From Treponemataceae bacterium (GTDB taxonomy: Bacteria; Spirochaetota; Spirochaetia; Treponematales; Rectinemataceae), in assembly GCA_963677895.2 (NCBI GenBank), contig CAXXGJ010000018.1, positions 320,001 to 384,000 of the forward strand: a stretch of DNA of 64,000 bases, in the 5' to 3' direction. The notes under the pieces are model-generated. The model had not been told where the DNA came from and did not search any database. It worked only from the letters and a program-made list of their open reading frames with translations. This document shows, one piece after another, positions 14,642 through 64,000 of the stretch; positions within the stretch are counted from its first letter, which is position 1, and each line of letters starts with the position of its first letter. A program made the translations under genes and the position numbers.

Positions 14642-14711
14642 AGTTGGATAAGTGTTTGGATTCCGGATCTCGGATCGCCAAACTATTTCATTATCTCGTA
14701 AAACTTAAAAT

Positions 14712-14756
14712 AGCCGAAGCCGGGAATCGAACCCGGTACCTGCGCATTACGAGTGC
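14712..14756 (-). pseudogene. 3' half of tRNA-Thr(CGT), att-site remnant
   Basis: GCACTCGTAATGCGCAGGTACCGGGTTCGATTCCCGGCTTCGGCT; no D-arm or 5' acceptor strand upstream. Confidence 0.85.
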
Positions 14757-33432: not shown

Positions 33433-33593
33433 CTGCGCATTACGAGTGCAGTTTTTCTCTATCATGCAGTAGTTTACAATATGATGGTATTAATATAACT
33501 CTTTTCTGTCAATAGATATAGTTTCTATATCTTCACTCTTTATCACTTGGCTTCGCTTCTTATATCATGCATTTTTCACCAACTTTGCTACAA
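33433..33593. repeat. att-like repeat family 1, copy 2
   Basis: 18-bp exact core CTGCGCATTACGAGTGCA plus further shared blocks at constant offset to 14740-14900. Confidence 0.8.
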
Positions 33594-43596: not shown

Positions 43597-43941
43597 ATGT
43601 ACCTAAAAAAGGATCGGACCATTTACCTCGTCGCCGGGATTACCGATATGCGAAAACAAATCAATGGACTTTCGGCAATCGCGCAAGACAAGCAACCAGA
43701 AGAAGTCTTCTCAGGGTCGTACTTTGTATTTCTCGGGAAGACTAGAAAAGTCATGAAGATTCTTTACTGGGACAAAAGTGGTTTCTGCATGTGGATCAAA
43801 AGACTCGAAGAAGAAACCTTTCCTTGGACGCGAAAACAGAACGGTGTTATAGAAATAGAACGCGATAAATTCAAGCTTCTTATAAAGGGAATTGACATAT
43901 TCAGAGAGCATCGAAAGCTCGAATATTCCGCGGTAGCATAA
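43597..43941 (+). CDS. tnpB: IS66 accessory protein
   Basis: TDMRKQINGL, KILYWD..GF. Confidence 0.93.
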   Translation: MYLKKDRTIYLVAGITDMRKQINGLSAIAQDKQPEEVFSGSYFVFLGKTRKVMKILYWDKSGFCMWIKRLEEETFPWTRKQNGVIEIERDKFKLLIKGIDIFREHRKLEYSAVA

Positions 43942-43987
43942 GCGATTCAAGGCTGAAAATAGGGCATTTCATGCTATACTGCAGAGC

Positions 43988-45568
43988 ATGGTGAGCGTGT
44001 TAGAAAACCTTCCTGACGATGTGGCCAGTCTCAAGAAACTGGTCAGGGAAATGGCGGCCGAACATACGAAGGAAGTCCATGAACTGCAGAGCAGGCTCTC
44101 CCTTGAACAGGAAAAGTACGCCGCATTACAGCGCCTGATATTCGGACCAAAGAGCGAGAAACACCAAAAAGAGAATCCTAAACAGGATCTGCTGTTCAAC
44201 GAAGCCGAAACGTTCTTCAATATCCCCGATCGAAAACCAGCCACGATAATGGTTGGCGCTCATGAGCGGAAGAAATCGGGAAGGAAACATTTTCCGGATA
44301 CGCTCGAACACAATGAAATCGTGCATGAAATGAGCAGAGAACAACGCACTTGCCCGTCCTGTGGTTCTTTACGGCCAGAAATCGGTGAAGAGCGTACGGA
44401 AGAATTAAGGCTTATTCCCGCCAAGGCAGTGGTTGACGTTCATGTCATGAAGAAATACGGACCTTGCCCCTGCAAAGAATGCAAGGGTACCGAAAAGACT
44501 CCGATTATTCAGGCTCCAGGACCTGCAAAGATCGTCCCCGGTTCGAGATTCTCGAACGGAACGATCGCCTTCTTCCTGACGAGCAAATTTGTCGACGCCC
44601 AGCCCTTCTACCGGATGGAAGGAATCCTTTCCCGCTGGGGCATAGACACGGGACGTTCAACCTTGTGTTCCCTTGCCATGAACGCTGGCCGTGCGGTGGG
44701 CGATCTTGTCCAGGCGATCAGGGATGACATAAAAGTATCGCCGGTGATCGGGATGGATGAAACGCCATTACAGGTGCTGCACGAAAAGAATCGAAGCGCG
44801 ACGGCGAAGTCGTATATGTGGGTAGCGTCGGGATTCAAGGATACCAAGCGGCTTTTGTTTTTTCACTACCACCCGACGAGATCGGGCAATGTGGTAACTG
44901 AATTCTTAAAGGGCTATTCAGGCTATCTTCAAACGGACGGCTATTCAGGGTATTTGCCGATAGGCGAAGCTCCGGGAATCGTCCATGTGGGCTGCATGGC
45001 GCATATCCGACGGAAGTTCTACGACGCGGACAAGATCGCAGGCGGTTCAGGAGACGCTGCTGATATGCTCTCGATGATCGGAGCGTTCTACCATAACGAA
45101 GCGCTTCTACGACAACGGTATGAGAGCAAAGCGCTCGATGAAGCCGCATTCCTTTCAGAACGGAAACGACTGCAAGAGCCACAGCTTACGGCGATCCATG
45201 AGTGGCTCACCTCACGAAGCCTAAGCGTGGCGCCTTCGAGCAGTCTGGGTAAAGCGATTTCTTATGCACTGGGGCAATGGGAACGCGCGATTCGCTATCT
45301 TGATCATGTGCTTTTGACACCTGACAACAATGCCGTCGAGAACGCGATCCGGCCCTTTGTCCTAGGTAGAAAGAATTGGCTTTTTTCAAACACGCCGTCA
45401 GGAGCTCATACGAGCGCGGGACTTTACAGCCTGATAGAAACGGCAAAGGCCAATGGGCATGAGCCGTATAAATATCTTTGTTACCTATTCGACATGCTTC
45501 CGAGAGCCACGACGCTTGATGAAAAGCTTGCGCTCCTTCCGTACCGGCTTGATCCTATGGCCTACTAA
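43988..45568 (+). CDS. tnpC: IS66 DDE transposase
   Basis: FGPKSEK, CPSCG, DETP, LQTDGY, CMAHIRRKF, DNNAVENAIRP. Confidence 0.95.
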   Translation: MVSVLENLPDDVASLKKLVREMAAEHTKEVHELQSRLSLEQEKYAALQRLIFGPKSEKHQKENPKQDLLFNEAETFFNIPDRKPATIMVGAHERKKSGRKHFPDTLEHNEIVHEMSREQRTCPSCGSLRPEIGEERTEELRLIPAKAVVDVHVMKKYGPCPCKECKGTEKTPIIQAPGPAKIVPGSRFSNGTIAFFLTSKFVDAQPFYRMEGILSRWGIDTGRSTLCSLAMNAGRAVGDLVQAIRDDIKVSPVIGMDETPLQVLHEKNRSATAKSYMWVASGFKDTKRLLFFHYHPTRSGNVVTEFLKGYSGYLQTDGYSGYLPIGEAPGIVHVGCMAHIRRKFYDADKIAGGSGDAADMLSMIGAFYHNEALLRQRYESKALDEAAFLSERKRLQEPQLTAIHEWLTSRSLSVAPSSSLGKAISYALGQWERAIRYLDHVLLTPDNNAVENAIRPFVLGRKNWLFSNTPSGAHTSAGLYSLIETAKANGHEPYKYLCYLFDMLPRATTLDEKLALLPYRLDPMAY

Positions 45569-49806: not shown

Positions 49807-50298
49807 TTAAAACACTTTTGCCATAACTACACCAGAAATCATTATCAAGACAATACCTAATCCTAGCTCGAACACTAATCCCGATACTCTCGCTCTAAGG
49901 ATTTTTGCTTCTACTTCTTCTTTGTAACTCCTCCACGATGCCTCCGAGGTTCTCAAGGCCGTCACCAGCTCCAGCTGCATTTTCTCCGATTCGGCCGATT
50001 CTATCTTCGATTTTTCGAGCGCTGTCTGCAGGGATTCCAAGTCCTTCAAGAGCGCTTCTTTCTCGCTCCTCAATGCTTTCAACTGCGCCGATAGCTCCCT
50101 CGATTCCCTCAACGCTTCGCTGGCCTCCTTCTTCAAGTCCTCGTTCAATATCTTTAATTTCTCGATCACTGAGGCCGCTTCCTGGAGGAGTGCCTGATCG
50201 TCCAAGGCTTCCCACTTTGAATCCGATGACTGCGCCCCCAATGCCCATAAGCAGAAGAGCAGCAGCAATAAAAAAGAACTTAGTCTTCTTTTCCACAT
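49807..50298 (-). CDS. coiled-coil protein with N-terminal signal and C-terminal TM (spanin-like)
   Basis: MWKRRLSSFLLLLLFC..., heptad-rich middle, hydrophobic C-terminus; last gene of lysis module. Confidence 0.65.
   Translation of the reverse strand: MWKRRLSSFLLLLLFCLWALGAQSSDSKWEALDDQALLQEAASVIEKLKILNEDLKKEASEALRESRELSAQLKALRSEKEALLKDLESLQTALEKSKIESAESEKMQLELVTALRTSEASWRSYKEEVEAKILRARVSGLVFELGLGIVLIMISGVVMAKVF
49895..50296 (-). CDS. embedded ORF with N-terminal TM and amphipathic helices (spanin-like partner)
   Basis: MEKKTKFFFIAAALLLMGIGGAVIGF; fully nested in another frame. Confidence 0.55.
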   Translation of the reverse strand: MEKKTKFFFIAAALLLMGIGGAVIGFKVGSLGRSGTPPGSGLSDREIKDIERGLEEGGQRSVEGIEGAIGAVESIEERERSALEGLGIPADSARKIEDRIGRIGENAAGAGDGLENLGGIVEELQRRSRSKNP

Positions 50299-50483
50299 TC
50301 CTTTCCCTTCAACGAGGCCACAAGACCCTTTATCGATTCGAGCGTCGTATATCCCGCCAGTACGAGCACGCCGAGCATGGCCGCAATCCCTGCCCATACA
50401 CCGGTCATCTCACCGTTCAGTGCCGCCGACCCCAAGCAACCCACCGAGCAGAGTGAGTAGAGGAGGGCGAGCCCTCTCCTCAT
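50280..50483 (-). CDS. small two-TM protein, holin candidate
   Basis: 67 aa, two hydrophobic segments, charged C-terminus, GGAG RBS. Confidence 0.55.
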   Translation of the reverse strand: MRRGLALLYSLCSVGCLGSAALNGEMTGVWAGIAAMLGVLVLAGYTTLESIKGLVASLKGKECGKED

Positions 50484-50524
50484 AGACCACGCTCCATCCT
50501 ATTCCTGCAGGAAGCCAGATTTCT

Positions 50525-50962
50525 TCATGCTGCCCGCCTGAAAACACGCAAGGATTCGATCTTCCCGTTCTTAACCGTTCTCGAGTTTTTTATGGGATCC
50601 CATTTCACAAGCCTGAAGTGCTGGTGCTTTATCGCCTTATCCCTACAGCATTCTATCCATTCCCAGCCCTCGACTACTCTTTCCCCAGGCTTTGCCCTGT
50701 AGTCGGCATTCTCTTTGTCGCTCCTCCATCCTCGTTCACCGGTTACCAGTTTCATTAGCCCATCCCGGTCGGCCACATAACAATTGTCGGGGTTGTCCCT
50801 GTTCTCCTCGTCGTACTCGATGAAGCCCCGCCTTATCCCTTCCAGGATCAGGTTTACCGCCTCACCCTCCGTCAGCCCGGGCTTCCCCAGTTCGCAGATG
50901 CACAGTGCCAGGCAGGCTCCTTCCCCCAATTCGGCAAGGAAGGTCTGTATGCCTTCCCTCAT
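50525..50962 (-). CDS. DUF261-like protein, candidate endolysin
   Basis: GACLALC...CYV...HF...WDP..SRTVKNG...S.RVF pattern; between membrane genes. Confidence 0.6.
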   Translation of the reverse strand: MREGIQTFLAELGEGACLALCICELGKPGLTEGEAVNLILEGIRRGFIEYDEENRDNPDNCYVADRDGLMKLVTGERGWRSDKENADYRAKPGERVVEGWEWIECCRDKAIKHQHFRLVKWDPIKNSRTVKNGKIESLRVFRRAA

Positions 50963-51333
50963 GGCCGATCCCCAGAGCCCCTTGCTCCCTTAGCCTTGCC
51001 TTCTCCCTTTTCTTGCCCCGCCAGGCTTTCGAGAAGATACTCGTCAAACTCCTTCTTGGCCCCCTCCATCAACTCGATAGCCTTGTCCACATTACCGTTG
51101 CACTCGCCATCGCGCTGTGCTTCGAGCGTTGCCTTCAGGCTCACTATCTGCGGTCCCTGCAACCTGAAAAGGATCGTCACGTTCGATCGCATACAGATGA
51201 GTTCAGAGAGGATCTTTTCCATGCTTCGCTTGGAGTTGAAGAGCCATTTCAGGTTTAGCCAGATCGCCCCGATCATCGCCGCGGCGCCAATCCCGGCCGC
51301 CGCATCCATCAACTTGTCCAGCATCGGGTTCAT
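50959..51333 (-). CDS. single-TM phage membrane protein (holin/antiholin candidate)
   Basis: N-terminal TM; ALEAQ..GECNGNV..A-type C-terminal motif; coupled to next gene. Confidence 0.55.
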   Translation of the reverse strand: MNPMLDKLMDAAAGIGAAAMIGAIWLNLKWLFNSKRSMEKILSELICMRSNVTILFRLQGPQIVSLKATLEAQRDGECNGNVDKAIELMEGAKKEFDEYLLESLAGQEKGEGKAKGARGSGDRP

Positions 51334-51353
51334 TCCCGCCTGCCTTATTTGTA

Positions 51354-52475
51354 TCAGCCTGAACGCAGCGCTTCCCAAAGCTCATTGGTTTCTGCGAGGG
51401 CAGCGCTGAAGGCTCCTTTCGCGGGGCGCCCGAAACCCAAACGGATTCCGGGACCATCCTTTGTCCATCGTTCTTCTATGGATTCAATCGGTACGGTGTA
51501 CCAATGGTCGAATGCTTTTACGCTACAGAGATCTCCCAGGAAATAATCCCTATCTAGAACGATAGGCGATCCTGGCGGTACTTCGGCTTCGAGACAAAAA
51601 GTCGTACCATAGTTGCCTAACCGCGCAGCGCCATAGCTCCTTAAACTTTCATCATCCTCACAAGCCCAGGCTTCGAGCTCTCTCTCAAATCGCAATGTTC
51701 CTGACGGTTCCTCTCCTTCCCAAATAGTCGCCTTTATTCTTCCTTCATTCGTTTTTGCGCCCCGCAGATACAGCGTATTGCTGTATCGCGAATTTCCTTC
51801 TATGAGACTCGCGCCGCTAAGGCTGTCATAGTCTTCAGAGAACAGGGCACGCCCGTTTGTTTCCTGCGCCGCGCTCCGGTCGGTGCCAATAAGGATATCG
51901 AAAGCCATCGTCCTCGTGCTCGCGTCAAAATCAATCGTGAATCCAGTTTCCGTGGCTTTACCGCAACGGGATAGCTCTGTAAGCATGTTCGAAAACGCAC
52001 ATCGCAGTGAAATTTGTTTCCCTCGCTCCTGATTTGCTTTAAGGCGAAGGCATTCGAATTTACGTGTTTCTCCGGCATCCATGCAGCATTCTCTGGCCAC
52101 GATCGTCTTCATCACCGTTTCAACGGGAGCGGTCGCTTCAAAAAAACCTGAGAGTTCGTCGGGTATCACCAATCTTCTTCCAAGAATGCTCTTCGCCTCA
52201 TATCCCCTGGCGATAATCCACGGTGTTCCTTTTTTTAATCGTTTCTTCTCCGTCTCCACGATGATCCCGAGCCGTTTTCCGGAATTCCCCGCAACTATGA
52301 AATTCCCTGGCTTTAAGGCAGAATCTTCGGCTTTATCCAGTGGCATCGAAAGCGCAAAATCACCCGGCGCTAAAAATCTGCGTACGTAATAGAATTCTCC
52401 GAAAGCATCAATGTCAGCCAATAGATCAAGCTGTTCACTAAAAATTCTTATGGGAATCGTGGCGTTCATCGTCAA
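51354..52475 (-). CDS. siphovirus Gp37-like baseplate hub/Tal-like protein
   Basis: RRFLAPGDF, ILGRRLV, GTDRS, DYFLGD, LGFG. Confidence 0.8.
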   Translation of the reverse strand: MTMNATIPIRIFSEQLDLLADIDAFGEFYYVRRFLAPGDFALSMPLDKAEDSALKPGNFIVAGNSGKRLGIIVETEKKRLKKGTPWIIARGYEAKSILGRRLVIPDELSGFFEATAPVETVMKTIVARECCMDAGETRKFECLRLKANQERGKQISLRCAFSNMLTELSRCGKATETGFTIDFDASTRTMAFDILIGTDRSAAQETNGRALFSEDYDSLSGASLIEGNSRYSNTLYLRGAKTNEGRIKATIWEGEEPSGTLRFERELEAWACEDDESLRSYGAARLGNYGTTFCLEAEVPPGSPIVLDRDYFLGDLCSVKAFDHWYTVPIESIEERWTKDGPGIRLGFGRPAKGAFSAALAETNELWEALRSG

Positions 52476-53935
52476 GCCTCGAACTTATATCCCCAACTCA
52501 CGTTGCTTCCGGCCGTAATTACTACGAGTACTCCATCATCATTTTTGTAGATAAATTTTATGCAATCATTTTCGGGTATTTCCCATTTCTTTATCCAGCT
52601 TGCACCCATATCATTGCTAATGTATATTTTTCTGCGGCATCCCATATAGATGGTTGTTCCATCGACAAAGATTGCTGAATAATCTATTTGTCCATCAATT
52701 TCCCTGCCATCATCCCAGGTAATCCCATAGTCCGTACTTTTAAAAAGTTTTGCGTTGTGCTCTAGCCCTGCTAAAACTATGCCGTTTCCTATGTGCTTAA
52801 TAAAAGTATATGGGTATTCTTCTATCCCCGTTGATTTTACTTCTGCCCATGTTACGCCGGAGTCAGTCGATCGAAACATTTTCCCGCTGGCATAACTTCC
52901 AGCGAGTACCACCGTCCCGCCAACACTCTCCATTACTTTTAATCCTTCATTGCTGCAAGTTCCGATATAGCTCCATGTTAATCCGCCATCTATAGAGCCG
53001 ATTATCTTATCTCGTGAAGATCCCGTTGCGATAATGTTTGATGTGCTGAGGACACAGAATGTGTCGATGAATTCTTCGTACTCAGAATCCCATACCTCTG
53101 TCCATGGACTGAGATAATAAGATGATGCCCTGAATATTTTACCATCTGTTCCTGCTAAATATGCTGATCCAGTATTGGCCAGGCTACGAATACTAGTGCT
53201 CACCGTAATTTGATCTATATTTTTCAGAGTTATTCCATGATCGTTGCTGTAAGCCAAGTGGTTGTTCTTATCATATCCAGCAAGTACTACATCACTTTCA
53301 AGCCGCAGCGCACAATTGATAGTCCCTGTCTCTAAACTATGATTTTCGACATGCATGAACTTTACAAAGGAAATTCCGTTCTGACCTGCATTCAGCGCAT
53401 CAGCCTTCGCTTTTATTATCCTTCCATAAACCTGCCCTTCTACAAGCGCATCGATCGAGTCGCTGTTCGTTATAAAGACCGGCCTCATCTGCCGCTCATC
53501 GGTCAGCGTCAGTACATTCGGCCCCGCCGAATGATCGATAAGGATTTTTTCCACTTCGATGTCATCATCGCTTAGGTAAAGGGGCGCGACAGGGTCATCG
53601 GCTTCCCCCCCTTTTAGAACAGTCGCCACCATCGTCCGCCGGTATCGATCGATGCATATGGCGATCCTGTCATACCGCTTTTTCCCAAGCGTTGGCTCAT
53701 CCAAGGTCAATGATAGTGGCGATGTGTTTCTATAATAGACGCCTCCCTTCATCGCCACGCCTTTTCCCATAGTGATCGTGAAACTTCCATCTGATGTCAC
53801 CGCGAAAGCATCATCGGAATGCGCCAGAATTCCATCGGCGCGCTGCATAGCCTCGTGAAGTTTTTCGTTCATGAATCGCGCCGTATATTTCCTGTCGCCC
53901 GCAACCCCGGTGAAGAACCCGGATTCTTCCGCCAT
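52472..53935 (-). CDS. baseplate/receptor-binding protein with Asp-box beta-propeller
   Basis: MAEESGFF...GDRKY, RYDRI N-terminal anchor; repeated S-x-D-x-G-x-T/S-W. Confidence 0.78.
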   Translation of the reverse strand: MAEESGFFTGVAGDRKYTARFMNEKLHEAMQRADGILAHSDDAFAVTSDGSFTITMGKGVAMKGGVYYRNTSPLSLTLDEPTLGKKRYDRIAICIDRYRRTMVATVLKGGEADDPVAPLYLSDDDIEVEKILIDHSAGPNVLTLTDERQMRPVFITNSDSIDALVEGQVYGRIIKAKADALNAGQNGISFVKFMHVENHSLETGTINCALRLESDVVLAGYDKNNHLAYSNDHGITLKNIDQITVSTSIRSLANTGSAYLAGTDGKIFRASSYYLSPWTEVWDSEYEEFIDTFCVLSTSNIIATGSSRDKIIGSIDGGLTWSYIGTCSNEGLKVMESVGGTVVLAGSYASGKMFRSTDSGVTWAEVKSTGIEEYPYTFIKHIGNGIVLAGLEHNAKLFKSTDYGITWDDGREIDGQIDYSAIFVDGTTIYMGCRRKIYISNDMGASWIKKWEIPENDCIKFIYKNDDGVLVVITAGSNVSWGYKFEA

Positions 53936-53944
53936 ATCCTCTCC

Positions 53945-54832
53945 TTATGCTTCCAGATGTCTCCCTGCAAATTCAAACAGTGCTTCGGATCCTTCCCCGG
54001 GGGAGTCATCGCCAATTTCGATGATATTTTCTCCCGGCTTGAGCTGCCAGAACGTCGATAAAAGGTCCATGTAATGCATCCCGTTGCTTTCTATGCCATG
54101 GCGGTGCAATGTTATGGTTCTGTTGACAGGTTCCGTGTTCACCTCCAAATACTCTCCAGCGGCAATAATGCCTGAAATCCTTAAGATCTCCCCGCTTGTC
54201 GTATTCCGGATGAATGGATTAACGATGGGCCCGCTGAAGCGAATTCTTAACGGCGCCGCAACATTTCCTTGATTGTTGATAGTCTTCGTCCTGTTTCCCG
54301 TGTGCAGTATGGTGGCGAATTCGATACCGTCCTCATCGAACTCGATCCCTTCCTCGCTGAACTCTGTCAATGCCGCAAAGTAGGCAACCTCGGAAACTTG
54401 AGGCTCTATATCTATGAAATAGGGCTGCCTGCAGACAAATTCCACCGAGAATCGCTGCCACGCCTCACTCCATGAACGTTTGACAAAGATTGGCTCACGC
54501 GAGGGCTGCGCCCCAATCTTCCGCCGCCTTCCCAGTCGCTCTACAAACAAGGTTCCTTCCCTCGTATGAATCTTCAATGCCTCACAGATAGTTCTTCTTT
54601 CCGACGCTTCATCTGCCTCCTCGAGCCCCTCGCAATCGATAGCTGCGTCTATCGCTATGTACCGTGGTCTTGTCGTTGTTGTTATCGCAATAACGCCATC
54701 AATCCCCGGTCCTTCCGAAACGCTTATCCCCAGCGGAGGCGTTTCAAGCCCCGATGCTGTAATCAGCTTAAGCCTTCCCGTACCGAAGGATACCTCCTCT
54801 TCGTCGATCGTTCGAAAGGTAAGCACCGTCAC
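53945..54832 (-). CDS. distal tail (Dit/Sipho_tail) protein
   Basis: GPGIDG, C..PYF, INNQGNVAAP...GPIVNP, STFWQLKPGENII. Confidence 0.82.
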   Translation of the reverse strand: MTVLTFRTIDEEEVSFGTGRLKLITASGLETPPLGISVSEGPGIDGVIAITTTTRPRYIAIDAAIDCEGLEEADEASERRTICEALKIHTREGTLFVERLGRRRKIGAQPSREPIFVKRSWSEAWQRFSVEFVCRQPYFIDIEPQVSEVAYFAALTEFSEEGIEFDEDGIEFATILHTGNRTKTINNQGNVAAPLRIRFSGPIVNPFIRNTTSGEILRISGIIAAGEYLEVNTEPVNRTITLHRHGIESNGMHYMDLLSTFWQLKPGENIIEIGDDSPGEGSEALFEFAGRHLEA

Positions 54833-54981
54833 CAGTCCTCTCCAAAGGCGATGAGCCTCGATACTCTTTCGCTCTCTCGTTTTTCTTCCAGGAGATCGGG
54901 AACAACCTCATGTTCAATGGTATTCGCCATCGTTTCATCGCTTGATTCATCGTTCCTGGGTTCCTTTTTTTCGATCGCCAT
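54829..54981 (-). CDS. 50-aa ORF at the position of the missing tail tube/tape measure genes
   Basis: TGATG overlap at its start and GTGA overlap at its end. Confidence 0.5.
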   Translation of the reverse strand: MAIEKKEPRNDESSDETMANTIEHEVVPDLLEEKRESERVSRLIAFGEDW

Positions 54982-55346
54982 CACCGCATCCTTGCGCCTG
55001 AATAGCGCGATACAAGGCGGCTCCATTCTGGCCGGCCGGCATCATGGCGTACCGTCGCTTCATGATGAAACCCAATATTCTCCATCGCAGTATCGACACG
55101 ATCGGCAAGCTCATAAGCGCATCCTTCTGCAATCATCCCTATGGTGCATTCCCACATCTCTGCGATAACGCTTGTCTCGCCTTCCAGAATCGGTGCGCCC
55201 CTCGCGAGTTCAATAAGCATAAGGGGAGGGGAGTAAGGCGCCTTCTCTGCAGGGTTCCCTACAATAATTCTGTCGGCCGATCCCACCAGCTCAAGTATCC
55301 TTGCATTCTCTGCCAGTAAGGAGCGTATATCCGTTCTACCGCTCAT
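54981..55346 (-). CDS. putative tail terminator/completion protein
   Basis: size and position; ELADRVDTAMENIGF. Confidence 0.55.
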   Translation of the reverse strand: MSGRTDIRSLLAENARILELVGSADRIIVGNPAEKAPYSPPLMLIELARGAPILEGETSVIAEMWECTIGMIAEGCAYELADRVDTAMENIGFHHEATVRHDAGRPEWSRLVSRYSGARMR

Positions 55347-55639
55347 GCCGACTCATCTTCTTTTTCAAGCGTGGCTTCCGTATGCTTAGGAAAACGGCGT
55401 GCTTCAATCACCCTGAAAAGCCCCCTTGTGCAGGTAATCCGATCATTCATGCCGATTTCGATCTTTTCTCTCGTGATGAGCGATAGGCGCTCCTTTCGTC
55501 CCATACCTTGCTTCTCGCTTCTCGCAGGCCATAGGCGAGCCCTGATTGTCCCTCCCGCCTCGTAGGTAGCTTTGTATGCGTGGCATGCATCGAAAGAGAG
55601 CGAGTATTTCAAGAGCTCCACTGCCTCAATGTTCCTCAT
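55343..55639 (-). CDS. putative head-closure protein
   Basis: position after adaptor; IEIGMNDRI...FRV pattern. Confidence 0.5.
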   Translation of the reverse strand: MRNIEAVELLKYSLSFDACHAYKATYEAGGTIRARLWPARSEKQGMGRKERLSLITREKIEIGMNDRITCTRGLFRVIEARRFPKHTEATLEKEDESA

Positions 55640-56124
55640 ACCCGTTCCAGGAGCACCTGTGCCGGGCACCGAATGTGCGCCGATAACAGCCTGTAAATGG
55701 AAGGAAAACGCCGTACCGTTTCGGCCCCAGCCGCATACCTTCGCGTTACTCCGCCTTCTCTCTCTTCCTTTAAATATCCACCCTCGCTCTCGCTCGCCGC
55801 TAGAATGCCGGGATCCACGAGCTCAAGGAGTGCGGCCTCGCACTGCGCTTCGATAAGCCACTGTGGTATCGCGCCGCTCCAAAGCGCTTCCATTCCATAC
55901 CGGGGGTATGAAAGCCGCTGTATCTTCGAAATCCTCGCTCCTGGCCAAAGACCGCCATACATCCGTTCCAGATAGTCACAGGCGCGGATCAGGGCCGCAC
56001 TTTTGGCATCGATACCTGCATTTCCCCATGACGTATTTCCTCGCAGCAGATGATAGCTATCAGCCACACTCACTTCCGTGTAGCTGTCGGCCCCGGCAAG
56101 CCCGCTCCCGTTCTCGATTGTCAT
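55636..56124 (-). CDS. head-tail adaptor ('DnaT-like' phage family)
   Basis: IENGSGLAGADSY...ADSYH, ALIRACDYL, Q.L.YPR, AQCEAAL. Confidence 0.75.
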   Translation of the reverse strand: MTIENGSGLAGADSYTEVSVADSYHLLRGNTSWGNAGIDAKSAALIRACDYLERMYGGLWPGARISKIQRLSYPRYGMEALWSGAIPQWLIEAQCEAALLELVDPGILAASESEGGYLKEEREGGVTRRYAAGAETVRRFPSIYRLLSAHIRCPAQVLLERV

Positions 56125-56669
56125 GCCATGTACCCGTAGACCGTCACCACAAGATCGCTGCCCTCGGCAAAATCGCCGTCGGCCATGACATCGATGCCCT
56201 TCCCGGCACGGCATCCAAGCGACATCCCAAACTCAGCCTCAAGCGTAACCCCTTCGGATGCGGGGCCAATGTAATTGCCCGGAATAAGTTGGGTTGCCAG
56301 AATACCCGCAAAACGGTAGATGAGATCGGTTCCCGAATCGGTGATATATACCTTCGTTCCTGTTCCTCCCGTCCAGGCAGTCTCGCCGTCGAGGAGGAGA
56401 AAGAACCCCAAGGGATAGATCTTCTTTCCCTCGGGGATATCCGCTTCCAAAAAGCTATGGACTCGTGTGCCGGCCGTGAGCGCGGGCAATCGTATCGTCT
56501 TTGAGAAAAATTCCTGCCCACCCGCCTCGGCGCTTTTAATCGTGTTTACCGATTCCTCAAGCTCTTCCAGAGCCTTTCCCAGCCTCATCAGCTCCTGCCC
56601 CAGAAGCGCTCTCTGTCCATCGGGGCTCAAGCGGTCGAGAATCCCTGCCTTGTCAGGATCAAGCGCCAT
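56121..56669 (-). CDS. hypothetical virion protein (capsid decoration candidate)
   Basis: immediately after capsid gene; short coiled coil plus beta-rich domain. Confidence 0.5.
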   Translation of the reverse strand: MALDPDKAGILDRLSPDGQRALLGQELMRLGKALEELEESVNTIKSAEAGGQEFFSKTIRLPALTAGTRVHSFLEADIPEGKKIYPLGFFLLLDGETAWTGGTGTKVYITDSGTDLIYRFAGILATQLIPGNYIGPASEGVTLEAEFGMSLGCRAGKGIDVMADGDFAEGSDLVVTVYGYMA

Positions 56670-56678
56670 GCTGTCCCC

Positions 56679-57821
56679 CTAACCTAAGAGCAGGCCGACA
56701 TGCTCATGCATCACTACCTTGAACCCCCACGCCAGGTGCAGCTCCCAAGTGATCTGCCCGTACTGGGCGATTTCCAGCAGCAGGTAAGAGAGGCCGCGAA
56801 GATCCGAAATTATGGCCTGGATCATGGTCGGATTCTCGGGCATCACCGGAGGTCGCATAATCCCCACCACTGCTTCCCGCTCGAAAGCCAGGCAGGGCGT
56901 GTAGCTGTCGCCGATCGTTATGGCACTTGAGGTGTCGATACCCAGTCGTACTCCCGGTCTTCCGATCGTGAGCAGCTGCTGCATGGCGGTTATCTCGTTG
57001 TGGTTGATGTACCGATTGGTGTCACCCGCGAAGGCGATAATGTCGCCTTCCTTTATGATCCCCGTTCCCGAAGCTCCCGACAGCGTCGTGCTTACGTCGC
57101 CTTTGACCATCGCCTTCGTCGCGTTCGTCAGATAATTCGCGCCCGTCCCCTTCACATGCTGCGCGATCTGCGCGCTCGTGCGAATCTGAAATCCAAACTG
57201 ACGCTTGATGACACCGCTCCGCCGCTCCTCGTCGCTACCCGCCGCGTAAGCCTGCTGAATTGCCGAAAGCTTCAACAGGTTCGTCTCGGCGCCAGAATCG
57301 CAGACGAACTGCGGATCGGCCATAGCGCAGCCGTTATCCTTCAGAATCCTCCGAACCGCGATCAGATCATCCAGGGATGAGGCAAAAGGCGTCGTCCCCG
57401 CCACGCCCGCCGCTCTTGAGGCCCCATGAACAATCGCCGTCACGCAGTCAGCTTCCGCCGCATTCCTTAAGGAGCGCATCTCCTGCATCAACTTTAGCCT
57501 GAGCCACTCCTTGTCGGTCCCTGAGTTCTCAAGACTCCGCCGCTGCTCTCCCGTCAGATGCCAGCTCCGCTTCTTCGACGCCGTGATCTTCACGTTCACC
57601 GTCGACGCCGAATCCGAATCCCCCTGGGGCGTCACGTTCCCCGGAATAAAATCCACCGGCGTTCCGCCCGAAGCGATCGGCACCGCCACAATATCGTCTT
57701 TAGCCACCTGCTTGTCGTCGAAGCTCATGGTCACCGCCTGCAGGGCTCCCGTATCTTCTGCTGAAACCTCCTGCGCCGCTGAAAACAGAATCGGCGCAAG
57801 ACTTGTGAATACATTGGACAT
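56679..57821 (-). CDS. major capsid protein (P22 coat-like, HK97 fold)
   Basis: 380 aa; GTTPF, FGFQIRTS, LAFEREA, LAWGFKV...LLG. Confidence 0.85.
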   Translation of the reverse strand: MSNVFTSLAPILFSAAQEVSAEDTGALQAVTMSFDDKQVAKDDIVAVPIASGGTPVDFIPGNVTPQGDSDSASTVNVKITASKKRSWHLTGEQRRSLENSGTDKEWLRLKLMQEMRSLRNAAEADCVTAIVHGASRAAGVAGTTPFASSLDDLIAVRRILKDNGCAMADPQFVCDSGAETNLLKLSAIQQAYAAGSDEERRSGVIKRQFGFQIRTSAQIAQHVKGTGANYLTNATKAMVKGDVSTTLSGASGTGIIKEGDIIAFAGDTNRYINHNEITAMQQLLTIGRPGVRLGIDTSSAITIGDSYTPCLAFEREAVVGIMRPPVMPENPTMIQAIISDLRGLSYLLLEIAQYGQITWELHLAWGFKVVMHEHVGLLLG

Positions 57822-57837
57822 CTTCTAATGCAGAGGC

Positions 57838-58575
57838 TCAATCCTGATTGAGCGTGCCTCCATGCGCGATAAATGCTGCGCGTTCCTTTGCCGGTAGCCC
57901 CCAAAACTGCTCTACAGCCATGCCGCTTGTCATGTCTCCCGCCACCGGAGCTCTATGCTCCCCGGCGCCGCCCCCCGCGTTCTCCTTCGCGGCGATAAAC
58001 TCCTTCCCTTCGTCGGAAGCCAGAAACTCTTTCACCCAATCAGGCAAATTCTGTTTCTGCTCCACACCATCTCGTGTGAATCTCGCCACTGCCGTCCTGA
58101 TATCTCCCTCTCCCTCAACCGCAAGGATACCTTTCTCTTTGATCAAAGCTTTAGCCGCTCCAATCAGCGAAGGTTTTACATTGGCCTTGGATAGTTCGGC
58201 CGTAAGGCCAGAGTCGAGCAGAAGCCTTGTTACCGCGGCCTTCTCTTCATTGAGATTCTTTGTGAGCAATGTTTCCTTATCGGTGCTTTGTCGTGTAGCG
58301 GCTTCGAGAAGTTTTTCCTTCTCGGCGAGAGTGGCTTTCGTGGTTTCGAGCTCGGCCTTCAGCGTCTCGGCCTCGCTGATAACCTTCTCTAGCTCCTCAG
58401 GGCTTTTCCCTGAGAAGGCCTCCATGCGCCGTTCGAATTTCTTGATCCTGGCCCAGTCGCGGGAGGCGAGAGGCTCGATCCTGTCCACGAGGGAGATGAT
58501 CAATTCCTTATCAGCGCTCTCGCCCTTCTCCAGCTCGAATTTCAGATGAGTAATGATGTCTTTCAGACTTGTCAT
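57838..58575 (-). CDS. capsid scaffolding protein
   Basis: coiled coil, EGKEFIAA..NAGGGA, C-terminal ERAAFIAHGG; directly upstream of capsid gene. Confidence 0.78.
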   Translation of the reverse strand: MTSLKDIITHLKFELEKGESADKELIISLVDRIEPLASRDWARIKKFERRMEAFSGKSPEELEKVISEAETLKAELETTKATLAEKEKLLEAATRQSTDKETLLTKNLNEEKAAVTRLLLDSGLTAELSKANVKPSLIGAAKALIKEKGILAVEGEGDIRTAVARFTRDGVEQKQNLPDWVKEFLASDEGKEFIAAKENAGGGAGEHRAPVAGDMTSGMAVEQFWGLPAKERAAFIAHGGTLNQD

Positions 58576-58817
58576 TGGTCATGGTCTATCGTCGGGGGTA
58601 ATATCCGCCCCGCCGGCCGTGCGCAAGGTCTATTGGAAGGTTCTATCGCTTTTGCAGGAAATGCGCGTTACCTGTAAAAGCGGGCAGGCAGGAATTTTCC
58701 GTCCTGTACGGATCGCATGGCAGGTTTGCTACCATAGGTGTATGATAAAGTATACATCACTTGCATGTAAAGAGGGCAGTATCTTATAATCTATTTTTTG
58801 ATTGTTTTTAAAATTTC

Positions 58818-63142: not shown

Positions 63143-64000
63143 GTAAGCGTCCAATTCTGCCCATGAGGACAAGTTAAAAAAATCGAATATCCTTCCTGAA
63201 ATGGAGGGATAAACAATGTACCTAAAAAAGGATCGGACCATTTACCTCGTCGCCGGGATTACCGATATGCGAAAACAAATCAATGGACTTTCGGCAATCG
63301 CGCAAGACAAGCAACCAGAAGAAGTCTTCTCAGGGTCGTACTTTGTATTTCTCGGGAAGACTAGAAAAGTCATGAAGATTCTTTACTGGGACAAAAGTGG
63401 TTTCTGCATGTGGATCAAAAGACTCGAAGAAGAAACCTTTCCTTGGACGCGAAAACAGAACGGTGTTATAGAAATAGAACGCGATAAATTCAAGCTTCTT
63501 ATAAAGGGAATTGACATATTCAGAGAGCATCGAAAGCTCGAATATTCCGCGGTAGCATAAGCGATTCAAGGCTGAAAATAGGGCATTTCATGCTATACTG
63601 CAGAGCATGGTGAGCGTGTTAGAAAACCTTCCTGACGATGTGGCCAGTCTCAAGAAACTGGTCAGGGAAATGGCGGCCGAACATACGAAGGAAGTCCATG
63701 AACTGCAGAGCAGGCTCTCCCTTGAACAGGAAAAGTACGCCGCATTACAGCGCCTGATATTCGGACCAAAGAGCGAGAAACACCAAAAAGAGAATCCTAA
63801 ACAGGATCTGCTGTTCAACGAAGCCGAAACGTTCTTCAATATCCCCGATCGAAAACCAGCCACGATAATGGTTGGCGCTCATGAGCGGAAGAAATCGGGA
63901 AGGAAACATTTTCCGGATACGCTCGAACACAATGAAATCGTGCATGAAATGAGCAGAGAACAACGCACTTGCCCGTCCTGTGGTTCTTTACGGCCAGAAA
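63143..64000 (+). mobile_element. IS66 second copy (runs off window); tnpB 63216-63560, tnpC from 63607
   Basis: sequence matches 43524 onward; identical TnpB translation. Confidence 0.95.

Follow-up and report, generated by a model that had tools for sequence, protein, structure and literature searches.

Can a phage structural operon that carries neither a tail tube gene nor a full tape measure gene still serve to build a particle? The question is raised by a cluster of 15 uninterrupted open reading frames (ORFs) that run on the minus strand from position 58575 to 49807 of a 64,000-nucleotide stretch of DNA from a Treponemataceae bacterium, hereafter the window (G000:C18:320001-384000, where G000 is the source genome bin and C18 its contig). 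The host is a spirochaete whose RecA is 91-94% identical to those of uncultured Spirochaetia and Treponemataceae metagenome-assembled genomes (MAGs). The answer we consider probable is that the cluster serves as late operon in a family of temperate, phage-like elements that integrate at tRNA genes, and that it specifies a stub-tailed particle made from siphovirus parts without any tube rings. The layout of the family is integrase ... TerS-TerL-portal-(4-12 kb of cargo)-promoter-scaffold-capsid-Ad1-Hc1-terminator-mini ORF-distal tail protein (Dit)-receptor-binding protein (RBP)-Tal hub-lysis, and its hosts are environmental spirochaetes. A bolder version, to which we give slightly less than even chances, is that these elements are an infectious temperate phage lineage with an undescribed tail architecture, whose siphovirus neck meets the Dit-Tal baseplate without a single tube ring between them, the tape measure being ~50 residues long.

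Absence of the tube module

A preliminary description of this DNA had listed a streamlined particle operon, intact and with many overlapping stop and start codons. The ORF calls, PHROGs and Pfam matches, hhalign alignments and structural models agree with it, although the decoration and lysis labels are still putative. The portal, terminase, tail tube and tape measure that it reported missing are indeed absent, as PHROGs gave no portal, terminase, tube, Neck1, full tape measure or replication gene in the cluster or in 53 ORFs of the surrounding island. The tail genes that are present (terminator, Dit and Tal-type hub) are of siphovirus type, and no podovirus tail family is among the PHROGs and Pfam matches. 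The model of the terminator, with a predicted local distance difference test (pLDDT) score of 88, matches the solved terminators lambda gpU, T5 p142 and RcGTA (6tba), and that of the Gp37-like protein matches the Tal/hub proteins of Bxb1, monocin, Mu (gp44) and 80alpha (Tal). Searched by sequence against the PDB, the Gp37 profile gave nothing useful.

The absence of the tube is not particular to this copy. The comparison covered nine distinct elements in which one locus carries both terminator and Dit, some terminator ends being taken from alignment ends; near-duplicates (L016, L021, L026) and one-gene or unresolved loci (L027, L028, L044, L046, L050) were left out. All nine are without a tail tube and a full tape measure, and their Dit proteins are 29-56% identical to the window's. 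The terminator lies 124-197 bp from Dit in eight of them and overlaps it in L012, while the distance is 3715-6986 bp in all six long-tailed relatives found by Dit. Dit is 24-32% identical in long-tailed relatives (Paenibacillus phage Dash, OP503990.1; Methanoculleus virus Blf4, MZ171369.1; IMG/VR loci L015-L017), and the Dit tree places the short elements on one side (modest support, 66/87). The nearest of these relatives, L015, has the order Hc1-Neck1-terminator-tube-two chaperones-tape measure-Dit, so Neck1, tube, chaperones and nearly the whole tape measure have gone together. Since tube and tape measure are absent from nine of nine elements, we regard this as a lineage trait and not decay. 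The TerL relatives L141 and L142 were uninformative on tail type. In the sub-lineage of L012 and L026 the terminator overlaps Dit and there is no mini ORF; the L012 contig is labelled Pelobacter, which indicates either a wider host range or mis-binning.

The missing parts were also sought elsewhere in the genomes. No tube was found in G000 with phrog_88, PF04630, PF18906 and a custom hidden Markov model (HMM), nor with the same families, without the custom HMM, in G019, a genome with another family element. No Neck1 (phrog_5) was found in either, and no tape measure with PF10145 in either or by tblastn of G000 with seven relatives' proteins. G000 is 92.8% and G019 99% complete, and the tube searches cover the families named.

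The genes that are kept are under constraint. The ratio of nonsynonymous to synonymous substitution rates (dN/dS) is well below 1 wherever measurable, except in an overlapped ORF of 133 amino acids (aa; 0.43-0.79), and the neck and Dit genes of close pairs give 0.17-0.32. In the Dit comparisons across the nine elements synonymous sites are near-saturated. This purifying selection bears out the preliminary description of a clean operon rather than a randomly decaying remnant; the dN/dS near 1 that it had named as one mark of an ordinary recent remnant is not seen where the ratio could be measured.

Compared with long-tailed Dit-Tal siphoviruses such as 80alpha and TP901-1, as described in PMC7048315 and PMC5099701, the family likewise shows the customary order of Ad1, Hc1, terminator, Dit, Tal-type hub and RBP. 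In contrast to them it has no Neck1, tube or chaperones, its tape measure would be 40-65 aa instead of 700-1200 aa, and it has variable cargo between portal and scaffold. In the literature searched, mostly titles and abstract openings with subscription journals largely outside, we found no Dit-Tal phage without a tube gene and no tape measure of this size in a Dit-Tal phage, although a prior mention is possible. The tubeless layout with a mini tape measure therefore appears to be lineage-wide, conserved and undescribed. Two candidate precedents were rejected: tail-less phage WO groups are not borne out by the available part of PMC9203015, and the 'no tape measure' of PMC8026635 refers, in the text available, to an unrecognised 2161-aa tape measure.

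The 50-residue ORF and the proposed stub tail

The 50-aa ORF of the window (the mini ORF) sits where a tape measure gene would end, overlaps the Dit start by 4 bp and is most likely a reduced tape measure. A mini ORF of 40-65 aa directly precedes Dit in eight of the nine elements. Conservation lies in the last ~25 residues; the N-terminal half varies and is acidic. The window's version has a net charge of -8 and no hydrophobic helix, and the long helical body of tape measures is not seen. In a 50%-identity library, 20 of the 21 matches are 40-65 aa long (20 clusters), the other being a repetitive 503-aa protein; longer proteins with the mini-ORF motif were not found among 8,000 candidates, which is weak evidence. 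With dN/dS values of 0.19 (C30/L018) and 0.33 (L011/L020), the mini ORF is constrained like its neighbours.

The C-termini of the mini ORFs align gap-free with the tape-measure C-termini of relatives, and in the long-tailed relatives this C-terminal motif lies directly before Dit. Scored against nine tape-measure ends and ranked among 2,974 background C-termini of the genome, six of nine mini ORFs came out above all of these; 14 background sequences scored at least as high as the window's mini ORF, 35 as that of L029 and 414 as the L012 candidate. A profile of 18 sequences, run on 7,844 peptides, had the C-terminal residues of two tape measures as its first matches outside the family (E 0.06 and 0.16), and hhalign gave a P of 2e-4. 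Additionally, a predicted complex of mini ORF and hub (2+2 copies) scored 0.41 against 0.02 for the best control, with at least 82% contact agreement and a partner pLDDT of at least 50 in the runs. Of the solved pairs, 116 of 157 reached the mark, as did 2 of 215 mismatched ones, but at scores up to 0.60 these were only 18 solved pairs and both mismatches; this weakly favours the pairing, and the pass may reflect likeness to solved tape-measure/Tal structures.

How such a protein might act is suggested by known systems. In 80alpha, the last 20 tape-measure residues are reported to sit in Tal, Dit superimposes on the tube protein, and tail assembly is taken to start from Dit, Tal and tape measure (PMC7048315). 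For TP901-1, tail length is reported to extrapolate to zero at a tape measure of 127 aa, with 0.145 nm per residue (PMC5099701). The mini ORF is probably a tape measure reduced to its C-terminal helix, the part lodged in the Tal trimer, and its product would nucleate the assembly of Dit and Tal into a baseplate. As a tube protein is missing and the ruler is below the zero-tail length, terminator and Dit rings would stack with nothing between them; the Dit ring, itself of tube fold, would be capped by the terminator to give a head with a stub tail. The 'tail-less capsid/baseplate particle' offered as one option in the preliminary description comes close to this, the particle proposed here having a stub tail and no tube.

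Several points weigh against the stub-tailed particle and its infectivity. The HMM version of the C-terminus comparison is weaker, since 21 of the 2,974 background sequences score as high as the window's mini ORF and 26 as high as that of C30. Among ~72,000 peptides the tape-measure ends reach E 0.6-0.8, just behind an unrelated 30-aa peptide, which is not significant database-wide. The likeness to tape measures is limited to ~25 residues in members that are kin, L012 and L026 have no mini ORF, and a single origin of the tubeless group has a support of just 66/87. Infection by TP901-1 is reported to need the N-terminal 154 residues and the hydrophobic region of its tape measure (PMC5099701), and SPP1 without its tail completion protein is described as ejecting its DNA outside the cell (PMC11099176). 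The family has no long tape-measure N-terminal part, hydrophobic segment or completion protein, and no ejection or pilot protein was found in it; as these parts have no evident replacement, DNA passage across the envelope is the weak step. Both the particle and the stacking of terminator on Dit are predictions from the genes. Finally, the G019 element has no recognisable replication module, and the C30 locus ends inside the RBP gene.

Whether a tape measure or a sheath is present is the routine basis for calling prophage morphology, for example in a Treponema survey (PMC11144348), and clusters with neither tend to be dismissed as defective. This family indicates that an element can do away with the entire tube module and yet keep neck, baseplate and tape-measure stub under selection over a deep divergence. 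Should particles form, they would be a minimal natural tail in which the separability of tape-measure functions (baseplate nucleation, ruler, DNA conduit) can be tested, and a concrete intermediate between long- and short-tailed phages. If they are also infectious, they would show how a long tail can naturally give way to a podovirus-like particle, and their DNA would have to pass a diderm envelope although the completion protein and long tape measure considered necessary for this are missing. The family is also a vehicle for large defence and metabolic cargo in little-studied environmental spirochaetes.

Packaging genes, island context and competing explanations

In contrast to the tube, the missing packaging genes are a matter of this copy. 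Terminase and portal stand upstream of the scaffold in five siblings, separated from it by ~4.3 kb (L029), 5.6 kb (C30), 8.7 kb (L010), 10.1 kb (L011) and 11.8 kb (G019) of unrelated, variable cargo. The sibling on C30, in the same bin, has tRNA-Thr, an integrase 91% identical to that of C18, defence cargo, and recombination and replication genes, followed by TerS, TerL, portal, cargo and the genes from scaffold to RBP. C30 probably derives from a co-binned strain, because it starts with C18's chromosomal tRNA flank at 94% identity; the contamination of the bin is 5.46%. The window copy is contiguous up to its integrase, and TerS, TerL, portal and replication genes are gone, with metabolic cargo and insertion sequence (IS) elements in their place. 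This loss of packaging genes is ordinary and specific to the window's copy, which we infer cannot make DNA-filled particles unaided and is either defective or complemented by a sibling. No portal or terminase was found within the 9.2-9.5 kb present for L018, L019, L023, L025 and L031, and no terminase in the bin that holds L012. Nine kb without portal does not show loss, because the gap reaches 10-12 kb in L011 and G019; among the metagenome loci L018, L019, L021, L029 and L031, packaging genes are seen in L029 and, for L021, in its twin L011.

The whole-module loss noted in the preliminary description thus has two causes, of which the packaging loss belongs to the window copy and the absence of tube and tape measure to the lineage. 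The genome search that it proposed recovers TerL and portal, on C30, and, with the families tried, neither tube nor tape measure; five siblings have terminase and portal, and tube and tape measure are absent in 9/9 elements. It had also described the flanks as unrelated AT-rich metabolic genes and the window as free of integrase. The flanks are metabolic and AT-richer (GC 43.1% in the island, 52.5% in the cluster, 56.6% in the host arm), but they are cargo of an att-bounded island and not host backbone. No integrase lies inside the window, but the island's own is at C18:398910-400283, 21.7 kb upstream of the scaffold gene and ~15 kb past the window end. Outside the window are also a near att repeat (C18:400398-400442) and the copy of the repeat that belongs to the tRNA-Thr(cgt) gene itself (C18:428821-428865). 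From the att copies and the integrase position, the operon's segment is 47 or 66 kb long. Against PHROGs, the 53 island ORFs gave transporters, regulators, enzymes, transposases and the integrase, and the only packaging label was a weak terminase-small-subunit match on an IS3 transposase ORF.

The reading that the preliminary description favoured, a domesticated element such as a split-locus gene transfer agent (GTA), is the strongest rival, though we consider it unlikely. It would make the operon host-kept, or the source of non-replicating particles (decoys, or periplasmic DNA delivery for uptake), with packaging genes from another locus. In its favour, L019, from a related organism, has the same selA-like/GntR/ABC transporter cargo beside scaffold and capsid at 88-92% nucleotide identity. 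The dN/dS of its capsid module (0.05-0.07) is like that of the cargo (0.09-0.10), which suggests that the junction is old while the genes stayed constrained. The operon also has its own promoter-like site, five further loci show no portal in 9.2-9.5 kb, and there is one TerL and one portal elsewhere in the bin. However, these last two belong to the C30 prophage with its own capsid genes, and the portal gaps of L011 and G019 undercut the 9-kb absence.

Distribution and setting also speak against domestication. The capsid occurs in 1/60 relatives, Dit in 1/68 family genomes and neither in two congeners, many of the surveyed family genomes being incomplete MAGs; a phylum-wide Dit search gave two weak partial matches in 400 genomes, and a genome-contig scan with a wider Dit alignment gave nothing. 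The G019 copy is at tRNA-Gly with an integrase, whereas the window's is at tRNA-Thr, and in L018 a head and lysis block of the window's type is combined with neck and baseplate of the C30 type. Patchiness, different tRNA sites and mosaicism are the behaviour of mobile prophages, not of a GTA such as VSH-1. VSH-1/BhGTA of Brachyspira likewise has a spirochaete host and a head-tail-lysis cluster with terL outside; its tail is reported to measure 65 nm, its homologues to occur throughout the genus and its one conserved terL to co-diversify with the host (PMC9662315). In contrast, the window's element has a patchy distribution, a linked integrase and a mosaic make-up, and in its siblings terL is encoded in cis. 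Of the features of a GTA, vertical inheritance (0/2 congeners, 1/68 family genomes) and freedom from integrase and att sites are not seen, and purifying selection on structural genes is, but active phages show it too. RcGTA has retained a tube protein along with a ~200-aa tape measure and, unlike this family, is vertically inherited. Its 49-nm tail (PMC9662315) is, like that of the proposed particle, a short tail from siphovirus parts. For the window's copy, the constraint on scaffold and capsid and the cargo shared with L019 mean that it may have a domesticated or sibling-complemented role.

Somewhat less likely again is a tail-borrowing satellite, with its own head, neck and baseplate, that takes tube, chaperones and tape measure from a helper siphovirus to form chimeric long tails. 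Exactly the tube module is missing, the G019 element is almost without replication genes, and phage-inducible chromosomal islands of the capsid-forming kind (cf-PICIs) are a precedent for foreign tails; they are described as likewise integrated, with their own capsid and packaging genes and no tube or tape measure (bioRxiv 10.1101/2025.02.11.637232). C30 and G019 have the capsid, packaging genes and integrase of a cf-PICI, and the window's copy lacks the packaging genes. However, cf-PICIs as described there rely wholly on phage tails, whereas this family keeps terminator, Dit, hub, RBP, mini tape measure and lysis block. A mini tape measure would also occupy the Tal site that the helper's tape measure needs. 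The families tried gave no gene for tube, Neck1 or tape measure in either G000 or G019, and C30 has its own replication initiator and recombination genes.

An ordinary dead remnant, in which one deletion took the tail core and the rest is decaying, is improbable, and for the lineage it is largely refuted. The window copy has lost packaging and replication genes and has IS66 and IS3 copies around it, but the same deletion is found in nine elements with Dit 29-56% identical to the window's, the frames are intact, dN/dS is well below 1 wherever measurable save in the 133-aa ORF, and the 50%-identity library splits the mini ORFs into 20 clusters. A phage-interference locus, whose mini tape measure and spare neck and baseplate parts would poison siphovirus tail assembly, is the least credible of all: the free C-terminus of a tape measure might compete for Tal, and defence cargo is present in siblings (methylase, Abi-like and reverse-transcriptase genes on C30), but the mini ORF is translationally coupled within a full morphogenesis operon, siblings have terminase and portal, and PADLOC gave no credible match (one coiled-coil match to ZorA, E 2e-4).

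Operon features, promoter and cargo

Table 1. Features of the operon and its island (window positions; aa, amino acids).
Feature	Position	Strand	Basis or remark
Sigma-70-like promoter, TTTACA-N18-TATCAT	58742..58771	-	10/12 matches
Conserved non-coding leader, ~170 nt, inverted repeats	58576..58741	-	aligned in 11 elements
Scaffolding protein, 245 aa	57838..58575	-	phrog_206 E 3e-7; dN/dS 0.07-0.08 vs L018/L019
Major capsid protein, P22-coat-like, 380 aa	56679..57821	-	phrog_283 E 4e-60, PF11651; dN/dS 0.04-0.05
Optional head-module protein, 182 aa	56121..56669	-	viral hypothetical cluster 0.91; putative decoration role, from position
Head-tail adaptor Ad1, 162 aa	55636..56124	-	phrog_477 E 6e-31
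Head closure Hc1, 98 aa	55343..55639	-	hhalign 95.5% to L015 ORF, itself phrog_25 Hc1
Tail terminator, 121 aa	54981..55346	-	hhalign 91.3% to L015 phrog_78 terminator
50-aa ORF, proposed mini tape measure	54829..54981	-	overlaps terminator stop and Dit start
Distal tail protein Dit, 295 aa	53945..54832	-	phrog_33 E 2e-25, PF22768
Baseplate/receptor-binding protein, 487 aa	52472..53935	-	phrog_1220/9534 at residues 1-125; PF02012/PF15902; receptor role putative
Gp37-like Tal/baseplate hub, 371 aa	51354..52469	-	PF14594 (Sipho_Gp37) E 1e-44
124-aa ORF, one N-terminal hydrophobic helix	50959..51333	-	kept across element family
DUF261-like protein, putative endolysin	50525..50962	-	Atlas 0.97 to DUF261 clusters
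Putative holin-like two-helix protein, 67 aa	50280..50483	-	hydropathy; conserved
Putative spanin-like N-anchored coiled-coil protein, 133 aa	49895..50296	-	nested in 163-aa ORF
Putative spanin-like protein, 163 aa	49807..50298	-	signal-like N-terminus and C-terminal membrane helix
Partial att arm, possible inner island end, 47 kb from integrase	33433..33529	-	17-bp core (33433-33449), 81% over 97 bp
Far att repeat, 45-46-bp copy of tRNA-Thr(cgt) 3' end	14711..14756 (C18:334712-334756)	-	bounds operon's island

Most of the ORFs in Table 1 overlap or nearly abut. Among the 13 junctions from the scaffold to the first nested ORF, six are stop/start overlaps (-4 or -1) and six are gaps of 2-41 bp; in the remaining one the holin-like ORF overlaps the first nested ORF. 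The 182-aa head-module protein has no significant PHROGs or Pfam family match and was not found in the C30, G019 and L018 elements. The 487-aa protein combines a virion structural N-terminal domain with a BNR/propeller C-terminal domain. The lysis labels (DUF261-like, holin-like and spanin-like) are suggested by position and hydropathy alone, and in the G019 element an M23-type peptidase/endolysin takes the DUF261-like slot. The two membrane-anchored ORFs at 49807-50298 are in different frames with starts 2 nt apart, that of the 163-aa ORF first, and share one ribosome-binding site (ATGTGG). The same arrangement is found in L010, L011 and L018, and no conserved lipobox was seen in the nested pair.

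The assembly is supported by one contig of another study, which spans 50763-58540 with three differences (run X3). Runs X6 and X9 contributed a small share, with pieces 85-95% alike on the cluster and flanks covered little or not at all; this missing flank cover was not used as evidence. Run X1 may be the source sample and is not independent.

The promoter and leader (~200 nt, 58576-58771) are strongly conserved in 11 elements, contain palindromic TGCGCA motifs and occur within G000 only at the two late operons. Promoter-like sites of this quality occur at chance rate in the region, and similar boxes are found at the same place in several siblings. A structured RNA in the leader is unsupported, as there was no Rfam match and almost no covariation (covariation term -0.08).

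Tandem islands at tRNA-Thr(cgt) span C18:334712-428893, ~94 kb in total, with two integrases and cargo for sugar and amino-acid metabolism; the middle att copy is called a tRNA by ARAGORN. Two IS66-type copies, 99.7% identical, flank the region (43597-45568 and 63216-64000 onward), and L019 has an intact form of the amino-acid ABC permease that the right-hand copy interrupts. The slot between portal and scaffold (C30, L029, L010, L011, G019) is hypervariable, with restriction-modification genes, nucleases or IS elements among its cargo, as well as what we take to be a NACHT-like protein with a DinB/DnaE2-like mutagenesis cassette. The defence cargo of C30 includes methylase, Abi-like and reverse-transcriptase genes, and a DNA polymerase A-like ORF adjoins split reverse-transcriptase-like ORFs there (L006:9695-12863). 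A repeat of ~120-130 bp occurs more than 40 times along contig C39 of G000 (46 kb, GC 33%) with attC-like spacing, and is probably a long integron cassette array. Repeats of this type are also found at C30:18905-19035, inside the prophage cargo, on C6, C13, C2 and C28, and at C18:529585-529696.

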